A stretch of 34,594 nucleotides of DNA, from assembly GCA_947628445.1 (NCBI GenBank), contig CANQZX010000001.1, positions 1-34,594 of the forward strand, in the 5' to 3' direction. How positions within the stretch are numbered: position 1 is the first letter of the stretch; the number at the start of each line of letters is the position of its first letter. Source of the DNA: an uncultured Bacilli bacterium (GTDB taxonomy: Bacteria; Bacillota_I; Bacilli_A; RF39; UBA660). Below the pieces are notes generated by a model. The model saw only the letters and a list, made by a program, of their open reading frames with translations, did not search any database and had not been told where the DNA came from. Shown here piece after piece: positions 3,550-31,857 of the stretch. Both the position numbers and the translations under genes were made by a program.

Positions 3550-4875
3550 TTAATCCATTGCTAAACGATAAGGATTTAATTGCGTTCCATTGCCTTTCAA
3601 TAATTTAGTTTGAGAATTTAAATAAAAAACCGGTCTTATCAAATTATTAATGGTATCAGACACTGAATTTGGATGGCCTATACTACCACTTGAAGAAACA
3701 AAAAAACTATGGGATGTACTAGTATTATTATGGGTAATAGTCCATTCAAATAAACCAAGATATAACCAATTTTCTTCAATCGCCGAACGATAATCGGCAT
3801 TATCAGCGCCAGATGTAACTTTTGACCAATTATTAGGTAAAGCTGCATACATATAATCAGAAACATACATGAGTCCAATATAATTGGAATAAAATTGAGG
3901 ATTGGTTTTTGTTAATTCTTTATTAAAAACCGCTTTAGCATTACTTACGGCAATTTCTGACCAAGATCCTCCAGTTATATTCCAATCATGAAACATAATT
4001 AATTTTCGCCATTTTTCCTTTAAATAAGTATTATAGTAAAAATCATTTAAATTATTTTTATTTAAACGACTTTCAAGCCAATTATTAGTTCCTGTACCAC
4101 CTGTTTCTTGTGCTCCATTCCAAAAATAAGTGGCTTTATTTTTAAAATGGGTATTTTCTAAGCGATAAGTACTAAGGGGATTACTAGTAATAGTTTGAGC
4201 ATAATCACCAATTCCTTCACCACCGGTTTGGTCAATAGTTGTATAATCTGCTTTAATTAATTTCATTTCATATTGATTATCATTGTTTAAAAAAAAGCCA
4301 ATTATTTGATATAAATTTTCAATATTACAATTATCATCATCACTATTAAAACAAACAAAATTATTTACTGTTTCTCTTTTCCCCGTATATCGATAACTTA
4401 AATCTTCCGCCTCTAAATTATAATTTTCCATGCCATCATAGTCGGCCTTCCCATCATGATAAATTAGTGCACTATCCTTTTGATAGTTTTGAGTAAAACA
4501 TTCACTCATGTTTTGACCACGACATAAACTAGCGATATTATCCTTATCTAAGTATACATAGCATTTATCACTTTTATCCGCTATTACTTTTACCTTTCCA
4601 TCTTCAAAACTTATTTTACTACCATTTTCACATTTACTTAATTTAGCATTAAATACATATCCCTCTTGAACAAAACTAGCATCTTTACTTTCCTCATACT
4701 TACCTGTTCCTGCTTCACTTTCGAGCATCATACTTATAAAATTATTATTTTTAACTTTTTCCTCGTTAGAAATTATTTTAGCTACAGGATTATTATCTTG
4801 ATAAATTATAATTATGATATTTAATAATAACCAGGTAATTAATATTATATTTAAAAAGGAAAATTTAGTTTTCAT
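3550..4875 (-). CDS. membrane-anchored surface protein, paralog A (conserved N-terminal module plus variable C-terminal module)
   Basis: The ATG at 4875 follows AGGTGA. An N-terminal hydrophobic anchor FSFLNIILITWLLLNIIIIIY is present. Residues up to about 167 are nearly identical to paralog B. The C terminus carries IGLMYVSDYMYAA, IRPVFYLNS and GNGTQLNPYRL motifs. Confidence 0.8.
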   Translation of the reverse strand: MKTKFSFLNIILITWLLLNIIIIIYQDNNPVAKIISNEEKVKNNNFISMMLESEAGTGKYEESKDASFVQEGYVFNAKLSKCENGSKISFEDGKVKVIADKSDKCYVYLDKDNIASLCRGQNMSECFTQNYQKDSALIYHDGKADYDGMENYNLEAEDLSYRYTGKRETVNNFVCFNSDDDNCNIENLYQIIGFFLNNDNQYEMKLIKADYTTIDQTGGEGIGDYAQTITSNPLSTYRLENTHFKNKATYFWNGAQETGGTGTNNWLESRLNKNNLNDFYYNTYLKEKWRKLIMFHDWNITGGSWSEIAVSNAKAVFNKELTKTNPQFYSNYIGLMYVSDYMYAALPNNWSKVTSGADNADYRSAIEENWLYLGLFEWTITHNNTSTSHSFFVSSSGSIGHPNSVSDTINNLIRPVFYLNSQTKLLKGNGTQLNPYRLAMD

Positions 4876-4925
4876 TTTCTTCACCTATTTTCCCCTTTAT
4901 TATATATATATATATATATATGCAA
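4384..4925. repeat. direct repeat copy A (5' half-kilobase of the gene plus 5' UTR plus promoter)
   Basis: By-eye alignment with 5712-6253 shows only scattered substitutions over about 540 nt. Confidence 0.85.
4899..4925 (-). promoter_or_regulatory. promoter with a (TA)n spacer for paralog A
   Basis: Minus strand reads TTGCAT (4920-4925), a 15-nt all-T/A alternating spacer (4905-4919), then TATAAT (4899-4904). The uninterrupted alternating tract spans 4901-4921 (21 nt). Confidence 0.6.
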
Positions 4926-4931
4926 GTTTTT

Positions 4932-6203
4932 TTAATTCATTGCTATACGATAAGGTTTTTCTTTAGTACCATTACCACTGATAAGATTGATCGTTGGTTT
5001 AAGATAAAAGGCTGGTCTTACAGTATAAATATAAGATACTTTATCATATATGATATAGCCTCCAAATGCAAATAATACACCTTGTTGAGGATACATGACT
5101 AATTCCCAATATTTAGGATACAACCAATCAATATTTCTAAAAGTAATATTAGGATCTACATTACATAAATGTCCCTCACCATCATTACCACAAGAGTTCC
5201 AATACTTATTTTCAGCAGCATAAAAATAATCCGATATATACATTAATCCTATTTTAGCATCAACGGTTGCTATTTCTTTATTATTATCAATATTATATAA
5301 TTCTCGAGCATTAAGACGAGAAGGATGTTTTTCATCAAGTAAATTGCTGTTATTGGCCGTAATCCATTTATGACTATTAATATAGTTTTGCCATATAGAA
5401 TTTAAATAGCTATTTAAATAATAACCATTTAAATTAATGTTATTTAAATTACTTTCAGCCCATAACGGCTTAGAAGCATCGCCATTACTAGTATTCCAGC
5501 AATACCGAATAGTATTATTGTCATCTGTTCCACAATAAGCTCCATTTGTACCTAAATGTTTAGTTGATGCTTCCGTAGCTTTAATTAATTTTGCTTCATA
5601 ATTTCCTTCTTCATTTTGAAAGAAACCAATGATGCGATATAAATTATCTTCTAAACAAACCTCATCATTAGAATTAAAACAGACATAATTATTAACAACA
5701 TCATTAGTTCCCGTATATCGATAGCTTAAATCTTCCGCTTCTAGTTCATAATTTTCCATGCCATCATAGTCGGCCTTACCATCATGATAAATTAGTGCAC
5801 TATCCTTTTGATAGTTTTGAGTAAAACATTCACTCATATTTTGACCACGACATAAACTAGCGATATTATCCTTATCTAAGTATACATAGCATTTATCACT
5901 TTTATCCGCTATTACTTTTACCTTTCCATCTTCAAAACTTATTTTGCTACCATTTTCACATTTACTTAATTTGGCATTAAATACATATCCCTCTTGAACA
6001 AAACTAGCGTCTTTACTTTCCTCATACATGCCTGTTCCTGCTTCACTTTCGAGCATCATACTTATAAAATTATTATTTTTGACTTTTTCTTCGTTAGAAA
6101 TTATTTTGACTATAGGACGATTACCTTGATAAATTATAATTATGATATTTAATAATAACCAGATAATTAATATTATATTTAAAAAGGAAAACTTTGGTTT
6201 CAT
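4932..6203 (-). CDS. membrane-anchored surface protein, paralog B (same N-terminal module, different C-terminal module)
   Basis: The ATG at 6203 follows AGGTGA. The N-terminal ~167 aa are nearly identical to paralog A. The C terminus is divergent but keeps IGLMYISDYFYAA, VRPAFYLKP and GNGTKEKPYRI. Confidence 0.8.
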   Translation of the reverse strand: MKPKFSFLNIILIIWLLLNIIIIIYQGNRPIVKIISNEEKVKNNNFISMMLESEAGTGMYEESKDASFVQEGYVFNAKLSKCENGSKISFEDGKVKVIADKSDKCYVYLDKDNIASLCRGQNMSECFTQNYQKDSALIYHDGKADYDGMENYELEAEDLSYRYTGTNDVVNNYVCFNSNDEVCLEDNLYRIIGFFQNEEGNYEAKLIKATEASTKHLGTNGAYCGTDDNNTIRYCWNTSNGDASKPLWAESNLNNINLNGYYLNSYLNSIWQNYINSHKWITANNSNLLDEKHPSRLNARELYNIDNNKEIATVDAKIGLMYISDYFYAAENKYWNSCGNDGEGHLCNVDPNITFRNIDWLYPKYWELVMYPQQGVLFAFGGYIIYDKVSYIYTVRPAFYLKPTINLISGNGTKEKPYRIAMN

Positions 6204-6253
6204 TATCCTCACCTATTTTCCCCTTTATTATATATATATATATATATTGTCAA
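5712..6253. repeat. direct repeat copy B (5' half-kilobase of the gene plus 5' UTR plus promoter)
   Basis: Partner of 4384-4925. Confidence 0.85.
6227..6253 (-). promoter_or_regulatory. promoter with a (TA)n spacer for paralog B
   Basis: Minus strand reads consensus TTGACA (6248-6253), a 15-nt alternating spacer (6233-6247), then TATAAT (6227-6232). The uninterrupted alternating tract spans 6229-6247 (19 nt). Confidence 0.65.
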
Positions 6254-6262
6254 GGTAACGAA

Positions 6263-6482
6263 GTTACTATTCACAGATAAATTATGCAAAAATAATTTTT
6301 CCCACTTTTGGTATTAAAATTGATATAAAATTGGAAATTAAAATCTAAAAAGTAAATATTTTTTGTATACTTCTCCCACTTTGAAGAAAATGGTGTTTTT
6401 AACAACTTTTTTCTGAAATAACTGCAAACCAATATATTATCTAGATTTGCGAGTTTTTTTAAAAAAATCTGTGAATAGTAAC
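6263..6482. mobile_element. MITE-like non-coding element (220 bp) with 16-bp perfect terminal inverted repeats and a flanking 9-10-bp direct duplication
   Basis: GTTACTATTCACAGAT at 6263-6278 is the exact reverse complement of ATCTGTGAATAGTAAC at 6467-6482. GGTAACGAA(G) sits immediately outside both ends, at 6254-6262/3 and 6483-6491/2. The interior has only a low-complexity 80-aa ORF. Confidence 0.5.
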
Positions 6483-6527
6483 GGTAACGAAGCTTTGCAC
6501 ATATGATTATCAAGGCAAAAAATTCTC

Positions 6528-9761: not shown

Positions 9762-9797
9762 ACAAAAAGAAAGGAAAACGAATACTTTCCGTTTCCC
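9762..9797 (-). terminator. intrinsic terminator closing the lipoprotein operon
   Basis: Minus strand reads GGAAACG-loop-CGTTTTCC followed by TTTCTTTTTG. Confidence 0.6.
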
Positions 9798-9807
9798 TTA
9801 AGATTCA

Positions 9808-10506
9808 TTATTTTAATAAGGCCTTGGTTATTGTTACTTTTTCGCAACTATCACTTTTTTCATTATAAGTATATTCCTCGCTTGAGCACTTTTTAGTTGC
9901 TGTTCCTGTTTCTGTTTCCACACATTTAGAACCCTCTAATTCACCCTTCGTACAAGAATAAGTTGTTATTACTTTAACCGACTTATGACATTTAAAATCG
10001 TTGCCTAAAGTATAACCATCTTCACATTTAGCAATACTTTTTGCTTCCGCGGGGGTTTCATAACAATCTTCATTTGGTCCTTGACGACAAATCCGAATGA
10101 TACAAGCGCCATCTTTAACTCCTACTGCTTGATAATAATAACCATTACTTTCTTGATGTTGCGTGTAACTTTCCATACACTCATAATCAAATCCTGGTTG
10201 TTTCGTATCCGTAGTACTTAGACACATATCACCCTTTAGTTCATAACCAGTAGCGCAGCTTTTGTTTGCTTTAGCATTAGTTGTCGTTGTTTTAACACAC
10301 TTGCCATCGGTTACTTTAAAACCTTCTTCGCATTCGATAATAGCTTCTTCCGTAGCCACAACTTCACAATTTTCACCCTTTAGCGTGCCTTCTTCACAAT
10401 AATATTCTTTTTCGTTTGCTTTAGTTTCTTTGGTCTCTTTACTACCACAACCGGCAAAAGTTAAGACAAGGATTCCACACATTAAAATACTAAATAACTT
10501 TTTCAT
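9808..10506 (-). CDS. Cys-rich modular lipoprotein, family member 4 (most divergent)
   Basis: Signal peptide with lipobox LTFAGC. The mature part has 16 Cys arranged in repeated C-x2-G-[YFT]-x-[LV]-x-G-x2-C modules. The N and C termini are homologous to 11000-13142. Confidence 0.8.
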   Translation of the reverse strand: MKKLFSILMCGILVLTFAGCGSKETKETKANEKEYYCEEGTLKGENCEVVATEEAIIECEEGFKVTDGKCVKTTTTNAKANKSCATGYELKGDMCLSTTDTKQPGFDYECMESYTQHQESNGYYYQAVGVKDGACIIRICRQGPNEDCYETPAEAKSIAKCEDGYTLGNDFKCHKSVKVITTYSCTKGELEGSKCVETETGTATKKCSSEEYTYNEKSDSCEKVTITKALLK

Positions 10507-10521
10507 TTTTCTCCTATTTAA

Positions 10522-10983
10522 TTAATAATATACGACAACAACGCCATCATCCCGTGTTGAATTCTCAGGATCATAAATATTGTATGATACCCCATACCAA
10601 GTAGTACCACAATCATCGACAATTTCATCACAATTTACGGTAAATACCCGACTATCAACATTATCCGTTATATCAAAGAAGGCCGTACTTTGACTTTCTT
10701 TCGTGCATTCTTCTTTAGTTGCATAAAAATATTTATAATTTTTTGTAAATTTTTTGGGCGTACAAGTTTCAGTTGGAGTAGTTGTCGGAGTTTCTTCTGG
10801 AGTTTCTGTAGGGGTTTCTTCTAATTTATCTTGGGTTTCTTCTTTTTCTTCAACATCAGTTACCTTATCATCAACTACCGGAGCCGTAATATTGGTTTCG
10901 GTATTAACCTTTTCTTTATTGCCACATCCCGTTAAAAAGAAAATACAAAATAAAGCTATAACGATACCATATATCTTTTTCAA
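10522..10983 (-). CDS. lipoprotein with a Glu/Pro/Thr-rich linker (unrelated to its neighbours)
   Basis: TTG start after AGGAAGTGA. Lipobox FLTGC. Linker EETPTETPEETPTTTPTE, then a 4-Cys C-terminal domain. Confidence 0.7.
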   Translation of the reverse strand: MKKIYGIVIALFCIFFLTGCGNKEKVNTETNITAPVVDDKVTDVEEKEETQDKLEETPTETPEETPTTTPTETCTPKKFTKNYKYFYATKEECTKESQSTAFFDITDNVDSRVFTVNCDEIVDDCGTTWYGVSYNIYDPENSTRDDGVVVVYY

Positions 10984-10999
10984 AATATCACTTCCTAAA

Positions 11000-11205
11000 T
11001 TATTTTTCTAAGGCCTTCGTGGTCGTTATTTTTTCACATTGCTTACTTTCGGCATTATAAGTAAAACCATCAGTTTTACAAGTATTGGTTACCTCTTTAG
11101 TATCCGTAATCGTACATTTTGAACCACTTAATTTTCCTTCAGCACAAGTGTAGCTTGTTTTAACGGTACTTGTTTTATAACATTTACCATCAATTTCTTT
11201 GGTAT
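11000..11205. repeat. conserved 3' block of the lipoprotein genes (copy 1 of 3)
   Basis: About 200 nt nearly identical to 11733-11938 and 12447-12652. It encodes ...KCTITDTKEVTNTCKTDGFTYNAESKQCEKITTTKALEK. Confidence 0.8.
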
Positions 11206-11716
11206 CACTAGAACATGCCGTAACTGTAGTATATTCTGTTCTATTAATTTCCCCTCCATCGCATTTGCCTTCATACCAATGTGTACAAGCGCTATACCAA
11301 CATTCACCATTTTCTTCGTAAACTGTATTTTTGCTTGTTTTACCATCAATATCAGTATATTCACCAATATCAAATTCTTTAGGTAAACGGCATTCTTGAG
11401 TAGTCACTTTATCATAAGTTTCATTACTTAAACAAGTACTGCCACTTAAAGTAAAACCTTCACTGCAAGTTTTGGTGGCGGTAGCATTCATCGTTGTCGT
11501 TTTAACACATTTGCCATCCGTTTGTTTATAACCATCTTCACATGTTGCCACAGCTTCTTCGGTTTCAACTGCTTCACAATTTTTTCCTTTTAAAGTTCCT
11601 GTTTCACAATAATATTCTTTTTGATCTTCTTTTGTTTCCTTGGCTTCATTACTACCACATCCCGCAATAGTTAAAACTAGGATTCCACATAATAAAATAC
11701 TTAATCCTTTTTTCAT
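11000..11716 (-). CDS. Cys-rich modular lipoprotein, family member 3
   Basis: The ATG at 11716 follows AAGGAA. Lipobox LTIAGC. Shares the same N-terminal and C-terminal modules. Confidence 0.8.
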   Translation of the reverse strand: MKKGLSILLCGILVLTIAGCGSNEAKETKEDQKEYYCETGTLKGKNCEAVETEEAVATCEDGYKQTDGKCVKTTTMNATATKTCSEGFTLSGSTCLSNETYDKVTTQECRLPKEFDIGEYTDIDGKTSKNTVYEENGECWYSACTHWYEGKCDGGEINRTEYTTVTACSSDTKEIDGKCYKTSTVKTSYTCAEGKLSGSKCTITDTKEVTNTCKTDGFTYNAESKQCEKITTTKALEK

Positions 11717-11732
11717 AAAATTCATTCCTTAA

Positions 11733-11938
11733 TTATTTTTCTAAGGCCTTCGTGGTCGTTATTTTTTCACATTGCTTACTTTCGGCATTATAAGTAAACC
11801 CATCAGTTTTACAAGTGTTAGTTACTTCTTTAGTATCGGTAATCGTACATTTTGAACCACTTAATTTTCCTTCTTTACAAGTATAAGTTGTTTTTACGGT
11901 ACTTGTTTTATAACATTTACCATCAATTTCTTTCGTAC
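11733..11938. repeat. conserved 3' block of the lipoprotein genes (copy 2 of 3)
   Basis: See 11000-11205. Confidence 0.8.
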
Positions 11939-12425
11939 CACTTGGACAGGCATTAACTGTCGTTGGTTCATATTCTTCTATTACACCATCCATACATATA
12001 TCATCTCTGTATTTAACACACATAGATGTTGAACATTTGCCTTCATCATTCAAACTACCTTTTGTAAAACCTTCAGCCGCTAAATCTTGAGGTAAAATAC
12101 ATTCTTGCGTTGCTACTTTTTCGGTTGCTTCATTACTGACACATGTACCGCCATTTAAAGTATAGCCATCACTACAAGTTTTCGTAGCTGCAGCTTTTAT
12201 AGTCGTCGTTTTAACACATTTACCATCTGTTAGTTTATAGTCATCTTCGCACGTTGCCACAGATTCTTCTGTTTCAACTGTTTCACAATTTTTTCCCTTT
12301 AAAGTTCCTGTTTCACAATAATATTCTTTTTGATCTTCTTTGGCTTCTTTAGCTTCATTACTACCACATCCCGTAATAGTTAAAGCTAAGATTCCACATA
12401 GTAAAATATTTAATGCTTTTTTCAT
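11733..12425 (-). CDS. Cys-rich modular lipoprotein, family member 2
   Basis: Lipobox LTITGC. The N-terminal roughly 90 aa and C-terminal roughly 66 aa are nearly identical to its neighbours, while the core is different. Confidence 0.8.
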   Translation of the reverse strand: MKKALNILLCGILALTITGCGSNEAKEAKEDQKEYYCETGTLKGKNCETVETEESVATCEDDYKLTDGKCVKTTTIKAAATKTCSDGYTLNGGTCVSNEATEKVATQECILPQDLAAEGFTKGSLNDEGKCSTSMCVKYRDDICMDGVIEEYEPTTVNACPSGTKEIDGKCYKTSTVKTTYTCKEGKLSGSKCTITDTKEVTNTCKTDGFTYNAESKQCEKITTTKALEK

Positions 12426-12446
12426 AAAAATTTCTTCCTTCCTAAA

Positions 12447-12652
12447 TTATTTTTCTAAGGCCTTCGTGGTCGTTATTTTTTCACATTGTTTACTTTCGGC
12501 ATTATAAGTAAAGCCATCCGTTTTACAAGTATTGGTTACTTCTTTCGTATCGGTAATGGTGCATTTAGAACCACTTAATTTGCCTTCTTTGCAAGTATAA
12601 GTCGTTTTTACGGTGCTTGTCGTATAGCATTTGCCATCGACTTCTTTCATAC
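12447..12652. repeat. conserved 3' block of the lipoprotein genes (copy 3 of 3)
   Basis: See 11000-11205. Confidence 0.8.
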
Positions 12653-13142
12653 CATTTTCACAGCCTAATTCATAAATTGGTTCAACATAATCTTCATAGC
12701 AATCGGTACCATCAGCATTTTGACAAATTTGCACGATACATTTATGATCTTCCGCCCGCACTGAACGATAGTAATAATTTCGTTCCGGATCATAAGCAAA
12801 TTTTTCTTGAATGCCACCGCGACAAGCGGGAACTAATTCACGATCGACACCAGTTTTGCTAAGGCAACTACCATTTTTAAGTTCATAACCATCACTGCAA
12901 GTTTTGGTGGCTGTAGCTTTTACGCTTGTTGTTTTAACACATTTACCATCGGTTAATTTATAACCATCTTCGCAAGTTAACTCGGCTTCTTCCGTGGCTA
13001 TAACTTCACAATTTTGGCCCTTTAATGTACCCTCTTCGCAATAATATTCTTTTTGATCAACAAGCGCTTCTTTTGTTTCACCACAGCCAGCAAGTGTTAA
13101 AATAAGCACACCACATAATAAAAATTGCATAGTTTTTTTCAT
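12447..13142 (-). CDS. Cys-rich modular lipoprotein, family member 1 (operon-proximal)
   Basis: The true start is the ATG at 13142 (MKKTMQFLLCGVLILTLAGC), 8 nt after AGGAG. The ORF-track N-terminal extension merely reads through the TA tract. The core resembles that of member 4. Confidence 0.8.
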   Translation of the reverse strand: MKKTMQFLLCGVLILTLAGCGETKEALVDQKEYYCEEGTLKGQNCEVIATEEAELTCEDGYKLTDGKCVKTTSVKATATKTCSDGYELKNGSCLSKTGVDRELVPACRGGIQEKFAYDPERNYYYRSVRAEDHKCIVQICQNADGTDCYEDYVEPIYELGCENGMKEVDGKCYTTSTVKTTYTCKEGKLSGSKCTITDTKEVTNTCKTDGFTYNAESKQCEKITTTKALEK

Positions 13143-13167
13143 ATCAATAAGCTCCTTTCTTACTTTT

Positions 13168-13196
13168 ATTATATATATATATATATATGAACGCAA
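13168..13196 (-). promoter_or_regulatory. promoter with a (TA)n spacer for the lipoprotein operon
   Basis: Minus strand reads TTGCGT (13191-13196), a 17-nt spacer made of TC plus 15 nt of alternating A/T (13174-13190), then TATAAT (13168-13173). The uninterrupted alternating tract spans 13170-13188 (19 nt). Confidence 0.65.
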
Positions 13197-13248
13197 GCAT
13201 TTTTTGACTTGTGTTAATCCAAAAAAATTCCTTAAAAAGGAATTCATT

Positions 13249-14703
13249 TTAAACTAATTTATGCATTTCATATATCTTTTGGGATAAATCGGTAACAATT
13301 TTAAAATCCCGGTTGGCTTCCATGGTAAGTATAACAACGATATAAGGCTTATTATCTAGCACAATACCAACATCATGATAATAGCCACCGTAATAACCAT
13401 ATTTATGCATAATTGTCGGTGCATTAGGAAATAACAAATAATTGTAATAATCATTAATAAAGTAATTTTTTAGTTCCGTTCTTTTATTAGCATCAATATT
13501 ACTATTATTAATAAAATTATATAAATATTTCATATAGATTAATTGATCATCGACACAAGTGTTACCATAATAATCACTACTACCTCGAGTTAAAGTATAT
13601 TTAGCCCCCATTTTTGTTCCATAATTTTTTAAATTTACAAAACCAATCGTTTGAACTAATTTAGCATGGGTTTGATTATTACTTACCTCAATCGTTGGTT
13701 TAACTAAGGCCTTAAGTTCATCCGTTAAAGTCATATTCTCATAAACATATAAAGCATCTAATGTCTTAACTAAACTAGCCCCATAATATACTTGATTTGC
13801 ATTATATTTATAAGTATAACCAGTATTAATATTATAATAACCAATGCTGACTTTATAATTATTTTCCTTAATATATCTTTCTAAACTAACTTGATAGGTG
13901 GCTAAACTGTCAGTATCAAAACTATAAACAATAACTTTTCTTTGCACTGTAGCCGTATTACCCATTAAATCCGTTACGGTATAAGTTAAAGTATATGTCC
14001 CGGTTTCGTTCGAATTAACCATACCACTTACAGTAACTTTACTAGCCAAATCGCCGGAGCAATTATCTTGAGCCGTATAGCCCGGTTCCGTATATTTGGT
14101 ACCCTTACTTAAATAAATGGTACTTGCTCCCTTTAATTTAAGGTTTGGTTTTTCTTCATCGGTATATTTTATCGTACGCGTGACCTCACTTTGATTATGG
14201 GAAGAATCACTAACCCGATAATAAATTGTATTACCTTCTTGGCTAACTTTAACTTGATCGGTAATATCGCCATCATAATTATCATAAGCCTTATAGCCTG
14301 GTTCCACATATCCTTTACCCGTGCAAGCTTTAATTTCTGTAGCCCCACTTAATTCAATTTGGGGTGCTTCCTTTTCCGTAATTTCCACTTGGCGTTTCAA
14401 CATATATTGTTTATTTTGATTATTTAACGCATAATTAATAGTAAAAGTTCCTATTTTTCCGGGTTCAATATTATTTTCGACTTGCACCACAGCTTTAAGA
14501 TTTTGACAGAAAAATAAATTACATCTTTGTGCAATAAACCCCTCTTCATGATAAGAGTCACTCAAATCTAAAGAATATATTTTGTCTCCTTTTAATTTAA
14601 ATTCCAATTGAAAAGTAAAGAAAGCCCATAAAATAAAAGATAACAAAATTAAAATTATCAAGATATCACTAAAAATTAAAAATCCTTGGTTATTTTTTTT
14701 CAT
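13249..14703 (-). CDS. membrane-anchored protein: two Ig-like (DUF5011-type) domains fused to a class-A beta-lactamase-like serine hydrolase domain
   Basis: The ATG at 14703 follows AGGAG and precedes an N-terminal TM segment. Two repeats have the pattern P-x-[IL]-x-L-x-G...EPGY-x-A-x-D-x-x-x-GD[IL]. The C-terminal domain has YYGASLVKT (S-x-x-K), VSNN (SDN-like) and HKYG (KTG-like). Confidence 0.7.
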   Translation of the reverse strand: MKKNNQGFLIFSDILIILILLSFILWAFFTFQLEFKLKGDKIYSLDLSDSYHEEGFIAQRCNLFFCQNLKAVVQVENNIEPGKIGTFTINYALNNQNKQYMLKRQVEITEKEAPQIELSGATEIKACTGKGYVEPGYKAYDNYDGDITDQVKVSQEGNTIYYRVSDSSHNQSEVTRTIKYTDEEKPNLKLKGASTIYLSKGTKYTEPGYTAQDNCSGDLASKVTVSGMVNSNETGTYTLTYTVTDLMGNTATVQRKVIVYSFDTDSLATYQVSLERYIKENNYKVSIGYYNINTGYTYKYNANQVYYGASLVKTLDALYVYENMTLTDELKALVKPTIEVSNNQTHAKLVQTIGFVNLKNYGTKMGAKYTLTRGSSDYYGNTCVDDQLIYMKYLYNFINNSNIDANKRTELKNYFINDYYNYLLFPNAPTIMHKYGYYGGYYHDVGIVLDNKPYIVVILTMEANRDFKIVTDLSQKIYEMHKLV

Positions 14704-14712
14704 AGTCAACTC

Positions 14713-15429
14713 CTAATATAGCTTTTTATCCAAATTTTTAAGAAACTTTTCGGCTTCTAATAGAGCCTCATTATAAAGCGGGGTAAACTCATTTAAACTG
14801 ACATCTAATTCTTCCTTCGTAAAATGATATGCTAAGTATCCCAATTCTTGCTTATTTAAAAGCCGATAAAAAAATCTTTTTATTCCCCATTTATCAAAGC
14901 GATATAACCATAAAAAAGGATAAACATTATTTATTCTGTGCAACACTCTTTTCGTAATATGGGGCTTATGAAAGTAATTATTAAAAATGCGCGTAAATTC
15001 TTGTTTAAAATCTTTAGTTAATTTTAAATGATGGGGAATTTCTTTCTTTATTTGATTTAAGTCATTTATTTTAACATCAATGACGCTTTCTAAAAACCCA
15101 TGTTTATGGTTATCATATGCGGTTACATTATTAATATACGGATGCACTTTATGATCTAATATTTCATGAGCTAAATAACCATATAAAAAACTTTTTAACT
15201 CATTATTATCTGTTTTACAATTTTTCGCAAAGACTTTTATATTAATTTTTTGGATTTCTTTAGTATAACTAAAATATTTTTTATGCCCTGGATATTCCCA
15301 AAGATGTAAAAAATAATTTAAATCATGTCCTTGATTACCCATGACAAAAAAATCTTTATTTAAAGATGTCATTTGTAAGCGGTTATATAAATCATTAGCA
15401 AATTTAAAATGAGTTAAGGTTCCTGCCAT
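14713..15429 (-). CDS. zinc-dependent phospholipase C-like family protein
   Basis: His-rich motifs GTLTHF, GNQGHD and GYLAHEILDHKVHPY resemble the Zn-dependent PLC fold family. The start is the ATG at 15429; the ORF-track start is a GTG. Confidence 0.55.
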   Translation of the reverse strand: MAGTLTHFKFANDLYNRLQMTSLNKDFFVMGNQGHDLNYFLHLWEYPGHKKYFSYTKEIQKINIKVFAKNCKTDNNELKSFLYGYLAHEILDHKVHPYINNVTAYDNHKHGFLESVIDVKINDLNQIKKEIPHHLKLTKDFKQEFTRIFNNYFHKPHITKRVLHRINNVYPFLWLYRFDKWGIKRFFYRLLNKQELGYLAYHFTKEELDVSLNEFTPLYNEALLEAEKFLKNLDKKLY

Positions 15430-15503
15430 AAAAATCACAAGATTATTTTAATCATTATTTCTAATTCTGTCAAATTATAGTATAATTATAATGGTGAAGT
15501 AAG

Positions 15504-30912: not shown

Positions 30913-31857
30913 TTAATCCATCCTTACTATATCTTTATAATTTTGAGGGAATCCCATTTCTTCTAATATTTTATCAATACTGATGGTTTTTAACCGTCCG
31001 GCTAAAATATCCAATTCGTATTCAATTTCACGCATTAACAAATTGAAATTATCGCGATTTAATAACTGTTTTAACATAATAATTAAAGCAAATAAATCGT
31101 TTTTTCCTTTAACATAACCATCTTCCCCTTGAGGAATATTTAATAAATTATGATATTTTGTATCTTCAATTGCCTTATGCGTTTTATTATTATAACAAAT
31201 ATCTTCATGAGCACATAAGTTCCGATAATTCGCAATTATAGGTAAGTATTCTACCATGCTATAAATATCGCTATTAAATAATTCGGCTATTTCTCTTTGA
31301 TCTTGGGCTTGCAAAACTGTATAAAGTTCACTGACAATCCCAAAGGATAAAACTTTCACCACAACCCAAAGGGGGATATAACCATAATAATCAATAAAGT
31401 GTGCCGTGGCTGTATGTTGCCGCCCATTAATACTAATTTGTCTTTTCATCTTTCGAATTAAGTCATTAACTTGTCTTTTCTTTGTCGGATTTTGGACAAA
31501 ATTTCGCGGATTTAAATAATTATTTTCTTTAAACCCATGATTTTTACTCATAACATATGCCAAAATACTTTTTAAGTTATTTTCCACAATCAAAATATTT
31601 TTAAAAATAATATTTCGGAGTTGCCGATCAAAACTAAAAACCGCATAAATTTCATTGAAATTAGTTCCTGGGATAAATGATTTTTCATATATATCAGATT
31701 TAATAAATAGATGCCGATAACCACTTAAAAAGAAATAGTTTTCCCGTAAAAGAATATTTTTGGCATTATCGATATCATCAATTACTAAACCTTTATTCTT
31801 TAATATTTCAATTTGCTCATCCAATGTCTTAAAGGTTTTTGATTTCACTAGCACCAC
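30913..31857 (-). CDS. Abi_2 (AbiD/AbiF-like) abortive-infection family protein
   Basis: The N terminus FKTLDEQIEILKNKGLVIDDIDNAKNILLRENYFFLSGYRHLF closely follows the Abi_2 family consensus as I remember it. A later LCAHED motif is present. The start may be the GTG at 31851. Confidence 0.75.
   Translation of the reverse strand: MVLVKSKTFKTLDEQIEILKNKGLVIDDIDNAKNILLRENYFFLSGYRHLFIKSDIYEKSFIPGTNFNEIYAVFSFDRQLRNIIFKNILIVENNLKSILAYVMSKNHGFKENNYLNPRNFVQNPTKKRQVNDLIRKMKRQISINGRQHTATAHFIDYYGYIPLWVVVKVLSFGIVSELYTVLQAQDQREIAELFNSDIYSMVEYLPIIANYRNLCAHEDICYNNKTHKAIEDTKYHNLLNIPQGEDGYVKGKNDLFALIIMLKQLLNRDNFNLLMREIEYELDILAGRLKTISIDKILEEMGFPQNYKDIVRMD

Follow-up and report, generated by a model that had tools for sequence, protein, structure and literature searches.

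A tandem operon of cysteine-ladder lipoproteins with probably fixed core types, homogenised gene ends and a possibly switchable promoter in an uncultured Bacilli bacterium

INTRODUCTION

In Helicobacter pylori, babA, babB and babC are paralogous surface genes with like ends and a divergent middle that sets specificity, and they undergo gene conversion and dinucleotide-repeat phase variation. Here we describe an operon of five lipoprotein genes, A to E, four of which are paralogues built on a ladder of cysteines, in a 34,594-nucleotide (nt) stretch of an uncultured Bacilli bacterium (contig CANQZX010000001.1, assembly GCA_947628445.1; the whole stretch is called the window below). The bab genes are its closest functional analogue, since they share with it conserved ends, a (here probable) specificity-determining middle, gene conversion and dinucleotide repeats, with no sequence relation. 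However, they encode Gram-negative outer-membrane beta-barrel adhesins from dispersed loci and carry their repeats in the coding 5′ region, whereas the genes described here encode lipoproteins in one tandem operon, have the repeat in the promoter spacer and showed no chimeras.

Two further systems are comparable in part. In TraN, which is extracellular and rich in Cys, receptor choice on the partner cell is made by a variable region carried on a conserved scaffold. In contrast, the window proteins do not match the C-terminal domain of F-type TraN (PF06986 / TIGR02750), are lipoproteins of a Gram-positive-type cell and have no conjugation genes nearby. The second analogue of the operon is Vmm, a lipoprotein of the mycoplasma M. 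mycoides with a repeat-in-promoter switch (PMC2628566); the tract in the window has a position equivalent to that of the Vmm promoter repeat, again with no sequence relation. Many mycoplasma lipoprotein families are tandem like this operon, but the mycoplasma proteins are Cys-poor with low-complexity repeats, whereas here Cys-ladder domains, five genes on one promoter and cell-wall genes are found, and the switching is putative.

An earlier note, made from the DNA sequence alone, had read this array as an antigenic or phase-variation locus with cassette-like swapped cores. Its observation turned out to be largely right and its interpretation half right. The reading that we favour, at a probability of about 0.6, is that the operon encodes four probable binding specificities as a fixed set, with homogenised ends and a promoter that may be switchable, rather than acting as a shuffling antigen locus.

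RESULTS AND DISCUSSION

Five lipoprotein genes, four of them built on the same cysteine ladder

All features of the operon are on the minus strand, where a promoter-like site, genes A-B-C-D-E and a terminator-like hairpin follow one another from 13196 to 9771. Gene A (12447–13142) encodes a 231-amino-acid (aa) Cys-ladder lipoprotein with the A-type core (GGIQEKF.YDPERNYYYRSVRAEDHKCIVQIC), and its paralogues are gene B (11733–12425; 230 aa; B-type core, LPQDLA.EGFTKGSLN.EGKCSTSMC), gene C (11000–11716; 238 aa; C-type core, LPKEFDIGEYTDIDGK...GECWYSAC) and gene E (9808–10506; 232 aa; E-type core, ESYTQHQESNGYYYQA..., with a diverged tail). The intergenic gaps from A to E are 15–21 nt, a ribosome-binding site precedes every one of the five genes, and an intrinsic-terminator-like hairpin with a T run (9771–9799) ends the array after gene E. 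As judged from the sequence, A–E form a single operon with one promoter and one terminator, and its transcript would be expected to begin near 13161 and to extend to 9771.

Gene D (10522–10983), which the earlier note had correctly singled out as an unrelated Pro/Thr-linker lipoprotein embedded in the array, encodes 153 aa from a TTG start, with the lipobox F-L-T-G-C, a Glu/Pro/Thr linker and a 4-Cys C-terminal domain. Its family comprises 34 proteins. It is kept in the syntenic contig L001; a homologue in another genome stands alone, in a context that shows no link to the Cys-ladder family. The start of gene A is placed at the ATG at 13142 because the upstream homology is conserved, a GGAG ribosome-binding site lies upstream and the product then begins with a Met-Lys-Lys signal peptide; this start and its GGAG site are kept in L001 and L016. 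A longer mechanical open reading frame (ORF) of 266 aa (12447–13247, minus strand) was rejected as an artefact, its first 35 codons (13143–13247) being promoter and leader and its Ile-Tyr codon run being the (AT)9 tract read in frame; a record look-up of this ORF returned nothing.

The products of A, B, C and E can be aligned end to end, and those of A, B and C share 47–51% protein identity with that of E. A protein was counted as a lipoprotein if its N-terminal signal peptide ended in the lipobox [LVI][ASTVI][GAS]C, and all four passed with K-K, a hydrophobic run and L-T-[ILF]-[AT]-G-C. Beyond the lipid-anchor Cys, the 16 cysteines that had been counted in the 9808 member are invariant in all four. 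Each ectodomain consists of three hairpin modules, a four-Cys core and three more modules, the module having a consensus of about 23 aa (Y-x-C-P-x-G-Y-T-L-S-G-x-x-C) with 2 Cys each. Comparison of the N half with the C half by hhalign gave a probability of 97% (E 6e-11), and module against module gave values up to E 1e-10, indicating that the hairpin module is genuinely repeated within each protein. Thus, alignment and internal repeat both bear out the earlier description of four of the five genes as lipobox proteins made of a repeated Cys module.

Core types are conserved across genomes

For trees and identity matrices, the alignment was divided into four segments, namely the signal peptide, the N modules, the core and the C modules. 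Neighbour-joining (NJ) trees of the core grouped the sequences by type (bootstrap 100, 99, 87 and 81 for E, A, C and B, respectively). The four types fall into two superclasses, A+E and B+C, and all of them keep a common skeleton of the same four Cys and flanking Cys; the cores are not unrelated as had been supposed. At the DNA level, the window A core shares 89% of its positions with its A-type counterpart in L003, a more distant genome, but only 36–46% with the cores of the neighbouring genes in its own array.

Nonsynonymous (pN) and synonymous (pS) divergence was compared between the window and two relatives. Over 6.6 kb, L001 is collinear with the window (91% DNA identity), and it carries A-B-C-D-E in the window order; its cores differ from those of the window by pN of 0.00–0.04 and pS of 0.17–0.34. 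Between the window and L003, pN and pS were 0.01 and 0.47 for the A core, 0.16 and 0.42 for the B core, and 0.14 and 0.43 for the C core, compared with 0.19–0.23 and 0.50–0.57 for the N segments and 0.30 and 0.60 for the flanking YjbR gene (52% protein identity). Overall, pN/pS of the cores was about 0.02–0.4. Within a given type, the core is thus the most constrained part of the protein, and the core types are old and orthologous across genomes. This is the opposite of what antigenic-variation cassettes predict.

These values bear on cassette-exchange antigenic variation, in which recombination between tandem copies would swap cores and thereby change the displayed epitopes. The combination of conserved flanks, divergent cores and tandem arrangement is what had suggested it, the incongruent phylogenies of the segments prove recombination in the history of the family, and array composition does vary between lineages. 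On the other hand, the cores form discrete orthologous types under strong purifying selection, no chimeric core was found among 68 full-length homologues, and in L001 neither the set of four types nor their order differs from the window. In addition, every copy in the array is complete and expressed-looking, with no division into an expression site and silent cassettes. We therefore regard antigenic variation as largely refuted at the sampled time scales and give it very little credence as the explanation of the locus; the 'swapped' and cassette-like variable cores of the earlier note did not hold up. Comparison with described cassette-type loci (vlsE, pilE/pilS, Borrelia vsp/vlp) likewise led to rejection of this class, as there are no silent, truncated or promoterless donors but four full-length copies with start codon, ribosome-binding site and lipobox. 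A cassette-type variable region, which would be diversified among close strains and show mosaic chimeras and relaxed or positive selection, was rejected as well, the cores lying in four clean clades with low pN.

Gene ends evolve in concert within genomes

The outer segments behaved differently from the cores. Trees of the N segment grouped the sequences by genome (NJ bootstrap 100 for L7, 98 for L3 and 94 for G5), and the identity matrices concurred. The earlier proposal that recombination or gene conversion shapes the ends was borne out by this incongruence (N by genome at 94–100, cores by type at 81–100). Trees of the C segment were mixed: L007 grouped by genome (100), the A and E copies of GCA_947632275 grouped together (90), and the fourth module of the A-type proteins was type-specific.

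In the window, the N-terminal parts of the paralogues share 69–86% DNA identity. The protein tails of A, B and C do not differ in their last 46 amino acids, but the last ~200 nt, described earlier as almost identical in three genes, share only 84–92% DNA identity (A-B 89%, B-C 92%, A-C 84%; pS 0.25–0.51), with longest identical runs of 39–63 nt. The tail of gene E, which gene D separates from A–C, is 61–65% identical in DNA to these three. The tails of L007 are 86–96% identical to one another and 63–69% identical to the A/B/C tails of the window and L001. When tails of the same core type were compared between genomes, pS was 0.50–0.65, versus 0.12–0.51 for tails within genomes (for L7, 0.12–0.44 within and 0.53–0.65 between genomes), and tail pN was also lower within genomes than for same-type tails elsewhere. 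In GCA_947632275, the E-type copy bears the tail of its A-type neighbour.

Could these genes simply be ordinary diverged paralogues without ongoing conversion, whose stalks are kept alike by purifying selection and whose promoter tract is a mere AT-rich spacer? The pS between the paralogous tails of the window (0.25–0.51) is about equal to the divergence between window and L001 orthologues (0.25–0.43), as that explanation would have it, and the number of substitutions shared by genome is not clearly above chance. However, purifying selection alone cannot group the ends by genome and yet the cores by type, nor can it lower within-genome pS, and it leaves unexplained the neighbour's tail on the E-type copy of GCA_947632275. 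Since within-genome pS is lowered and selection alone is insufficient, gene conversion is the simplest account. We consider the ordinary-paralogue explanation unlikely, and concerted evolution of the gene ends by recombination or gene conversion is supported by these sequence comparisons. Because the pS of the window A/B/C tails resembles that of the genes flanking the array in window and L001 (0.25–0.43), their last homogenisation was probably not recent.

Array content and copy number vary between lineages

A profile search of 5.8 billion proteins returned only 32 relatives, none of which carries a name or a Pfam domain, and a cluster look-up of five members gave no source-given names. No relatives were found in scans of JGI metagenome contigs or IMG/VR viral contigs. 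Array content differs between the loci. L003, L004 and L005, from the more distant genome, carry C-type, B-type and A-type genes between a helix-turn-helix (HTH) gene and a GDPD gene, whereas related strains have one B-type gene at the same locus (L017–L020). L007–L009 have a three-gene array, L002 has one E-type gene, and GCA_947632275 has an A+E pair adjoining a CmpB-family gene (L014) and a lone C-type gene elsewhere (L013). The survey shows that arrays and copy-number change are typical of the Cys-ladder family. At the HTH-GDPD locus, three family genes behind an (AT)10–11 promoter (L003 6437–8702) are opposed to one B-type gene (L017 1552–2244), the leader of which is like that of gene 1 of L003 while its tail continues into the sequence 3′ of gene 3. 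Of the two outcomes that a comparison of relatives had been expected to give, copy-number change was thus observed, with one or three genes at one locus, but core shuffling was not, in any of the 68 homologues.

A dinucleotide tract occupies the promoter spacer

The candidate promoter of the operon reads, on the minus strand, TTGCGT, TC, (AT)9, AAT. The candidate −35 hexamer TTGCGT (13191–13196), read from the sequence, is kept in L001 and L016, and the (AT)9 tract (13171–13188) makes up most of the 17-nt spacer (13174–13190). The candidate −10 hexamer TATAAT (13168–13173) is composed of the last TAT of the tract and AAT, an arrangement also seen in L003. The window contains three tracts of at least nine AT units, and none occurred in 100 window shuffles.

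The slippage-prone promoter tract noted earlier is therefore present, and it recurs elsewhere in the family. Ahead of its C-type first gene, L003 has a non-homologous upstream region with TTGACA-(AT)10-AAT, that is, perfect hexamers at a 17-nt spacing. The tract of L004 is also (AT)10, and in L005, which comes from a different sample and has the same flanks, the tract is (AT)11 and the spacer 19 nt long, so that the homologous-type promoter carries (AT)10 or (AT)11 depending on the sample. The single-gene strains (L017) have a promoter without the repeat. The pattern had no match in JGI metagenome contigs. This promoter-spacer arrangement is that of the Vmm type and of the H. influenzae hif type, in which a one-unit change alters the spacer length. 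Given that the repeat lies between −35 and −10, one-unit (2 nt) slipped-strand changes could switch the whole operon on or off, and operon-wide phase variation via the (AT)n tract is plausible but unproven. If the tract were a mere AT-rich spacer, as in the ordinary-paralogue explanation, its constancy at (AT)9 in three contigs of the window's lineage would be accounted for, but not the recurrence of a 17-nt (AT)n spacer at a non-homologous promoter of a distant genome, where its length varies.

A second tandem pair in the window (3550–4884 and 4932–6212, minus strand) encodes membrane-anchored proteins with no Pfam match, which are ~97% identical over the first 165 aa and diverged in their C-terminal halves (55% identity overall). 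Each gene of this pair is preceded by its own (AT)n tract (4902–4921 and 6230–6247), namely (AT)10 and TTGACA-(AT)9, followed by the same AATAAAGGGG leader; the spacer of the TTGACA-(AT)9 promoter would be 15 nt. L001 lacks this pair between the CDF-transporter gene and the 276-aa gene, and in L001 a relative of the 3550–4884 family (34% identity) precedes the array. Homology between window and L001 ends ~20 nt upstream of the −35 hexamer of the array (window 13190–13330 versus L001 1023–1283), and the L001 flank upstream of the array resembles window 6224–6483 (92% identity). This flank mismatch points to rearrangement beside (AT)n promoters.

Predicted structure and distribution of the hairpin module

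AlphaFold2 models had a mean predicted local distance difference test (pLDDT) score of 87 for B and 86 for E, nearly all of the mature part exceeding 90. Both models are all-beta, each module contributing about three strands and the core a small sheet, and their predicted template modelling score (pTM) of 0.55 fits an elongated shape. Among the 68 homologues, cysteines were lost together in neighbouring pairs (C37+C47, C136+C144 and C205+C219), which fits a ladder of eight nearest-neighbour disulfides. The predicted shape would accordingly be an elongated all-beta rod with eight such disulfides, the expected pairs being 37-47, 59-70, 84-95, 109-131, 136-144, 160-171, 183-193 and 205-219 in the numbering of B; the pairing that had been suggested from the even Cys count agrees with the co-loss.

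The module is widespread. Searching 1.84 billion cluster representatives with its profile gave 1219 proteins at E ≤ 0.001. These include proteins of up to ~4500 aa with up to 36 matched stretches (the two that were scanned, P0033 and P0034, are without a Pfam domain), long F-type TraN homologues in which the module forms an N-terminal extension (P0041, P0048), and one Ser/Thr kinase with an ectodomain built of the module repeat. Many relatives of 280–330 aa (P0027, P0029, P0037, P0047 and others; L010 6001–6852) carry the ectodomain of three modules, core and three modules after a cytoplasmic zinc ribbon and a membrane helix, and this form is commoner among the cluster representatives than the lipoprotein form. 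P0051 and P0057 are further repeat-bearing proteins listed for the YxCPxGYTLSGxxC unit.

The earlier note had recognised no lipoprotein family here, and in profile searches the hairpin module matched no Pfam, NCBIfam or PDB entry; the PDB sequence profile search gave nothing below E 0.6. Scans of the five operon proteins against Pfam, NCBIfam and PHROGs gave signal-peptide-level or sub-threshold matches only. The Cys-ladder protein family and its hairpin module are thus undescribed. Several known families were considered and rejected. Sushi/CCP (PF00084), a domain of ~60 aa with 4 Cys paired 1-3 and 2-4 and a conserved Trp, gave no match at E ≤ 0.1, and a PDB profile alignment covered only the CxxGYxL motif (E 0.62). 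For EGF/cEGF (PF12662), the best score, in E, was 13 bits against a cut-off of 26.6 bits (E 0.096, over 13 residues). The CysRRep repeats of Daugavet et al. (PMC7379824 and a 2026 bioRxiv preprint) have the spacing Cx6-9Cx5-7Cx8-11Cx7-8CC, whereas here there are C-x9-13-C pairs and no CC doublet. The sub-threshold cEGF and Sushi alignments of the motif explain why a Sushi/EGF resemblance had been noted: the likeness is real for the short motif C-x2-G-[YF]-x-L-x-G-x2-C on a disulfide-stapled beta-hairpin, but family membership is not supported, the Pfam scores being far below threshold. Moreover, EGF and Sushi domains have 6 and 4 Cys per domain, respectively, with interleaved disulfides, whereas here 2 Cys per ~23-aa module with nearest-neighbour pairing are predicted.

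A fixed set of binding proteins as the favoured reading

Because every core type is kept from genome to genome, the most likely function of the operon is to provide four fixed binding specificities. The contexts of the module are all extracellular and mostly of adhesin, sensor or mating-contact kind, from which we infer a surface binding role; we likewise infer surface exposure, disulfides and on/off switching of the operon. The mechanism would then be as follows. In a Gram-positive-type anaerobic gut bacterium, the operon would encode five lipoproteins anchored in the membrane, and the four central-domain types would provide four fixed binding specificities on a common stalk, presumably as adhesin or receptor-like surface proteins. 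Gene conversion would keep the stalk-coding ends of neighbours alike within a genome, unequal recombination would alter copy number between lineages, and slipped-strand change of the (AT)n tract may switch the whole operon.

A different envelope role was also considered, in which the proteins would be immunity or decoy lipoproteins against toxins or phages, inhibitors of proteases or lysozyme, or redox or metal-binding proteins using the 16 thiols. Immunity gene clusters typically contain small, diversified lipoproteins in tandem, and the operon resembles them in this respect. The C-type copy of L013 lies ~4 kb from a phage-type integrase, and a reduced gut environment makes free thiols conceivable. 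However, no toxin, secretion-system or phage gene is adjacent in the window, L001, L003 or L007, the PHROG matches, with an E of 7e-5 at best, do not reach beyond the signal peptide and the N-terminal part, and the viral contigs mentioned above contained no relatives. For the thiol-based variants, there are no CxxC or His/Cys metal-binding motifs, and the loss of Cys in neighbouring pairs is at odds with them. Such a role appears to us quite improbable, although less so than antigenic variation.

Several points weigh against the fixed-specificity reading or parts of it. As to binding, scans of the operon proteins and window genes identified no partner, ligand or enzyme domain, and the neighbouring genes were uninformative. 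As to the predicted fold, a Foldseek search of the B model against PDB and BFVD gave template modelling (TM) scores of ~0.1 and no usable match, a weak negative in view of elongated repeat models being poor Foldseek queries. Disulfides are unexpected in an anaerobic Firmicute, the exported proteins of anaerobic Firmicutes normally avoiding cysteine (PMC2823432), and a Dsb-type or thiol-oxidoreductase gene is absent from the window, the only region covered in this respect. As to gene conversion, the substitutions common to the window paralogues and not to those of L001 number 9 in the tails, 7 in the N segments and 1 in the core, and recurrent synonymous change could, by our own estimate, give ~9 tail substitutions, so that recent conversion is not demonstrable between window and L001. 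As to switching, the −35 hexamer TTGCGT is weak, with 3/6 matches to TTGACA, and was not reported by a consensus scan; the tract shows no variation in the window's lineage (window, L001 and L016); and the lone (AT)11 allele comes from an assembly of ~4x coverage and could be an assembly error.

Several features are of wider interest. The rod is a confidently predicted all-beta fold family absent from Pfam, NCBIfam and PDB, and its module is widespread in bacterial extracellular proteins. The operon would be a natural example of concerted evolution limited to the ends of tandem genes, with four central 'specificity' domains staying near-invariant, and of a heavily disulfide-dependent design (as predicted) in an anaerobic Firmicute-type lineage. 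Should the (AT)n promoter switch, uncultured gut commensals would possess a mycoplasma-style switch for a whole surface-protein operon. The near-invariant A core points to a conserved ligand, which is directly searchable. A bolder and more doubtful extension, which we put forward tentatively, is that the ~200-aa arrangement of three hairpins, a 4-Cys core and three hairpins defines an undescribed superfamily of disulfide-ladder beta-rod display scaffolds, here in a phase-variable operon with fixed receptor-binding cores near-invariant across genera and stalks kept uniform by gene conversion.

Genomic setting and neighbouring genes

The window has ~30% G+C and contains genes for ribosomal proteins L11, L1 and L10, enolase, pyruvate:ferredoxin oxidoreductase, RecG, HtrA, BacA and an amidase. 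The housekeeping, pyruvate:ferredoxin oxidoreductase and BacA/amidase genes indicate that the DNA is chromosomal and belongs to an anaerobe that has cell-wall genes. The contig and its nearest relatives are metagenome-assembled genomes of 'uncultured Bacilli bacterium', apparently from rabbit gut according to their 'Lapin' sample names.

Directly upstream of the operon, within 13249–14709 and 14713–15438 (minus strand), a membrane-anchored protein with three Bact_surface_Ig-like domains and a beta-lactamase-2-type domain is encoded, and a zinc phospholipase-C-like protein precedes it in this region (13249–15438, minus strand). At the corresponding position, L001 has other genes. Farther away, an Abi_2 (abortive-infection-like) gene (30913–31857, minus strand) is flanked by an amidase gene and an HtrA-type protease gene.

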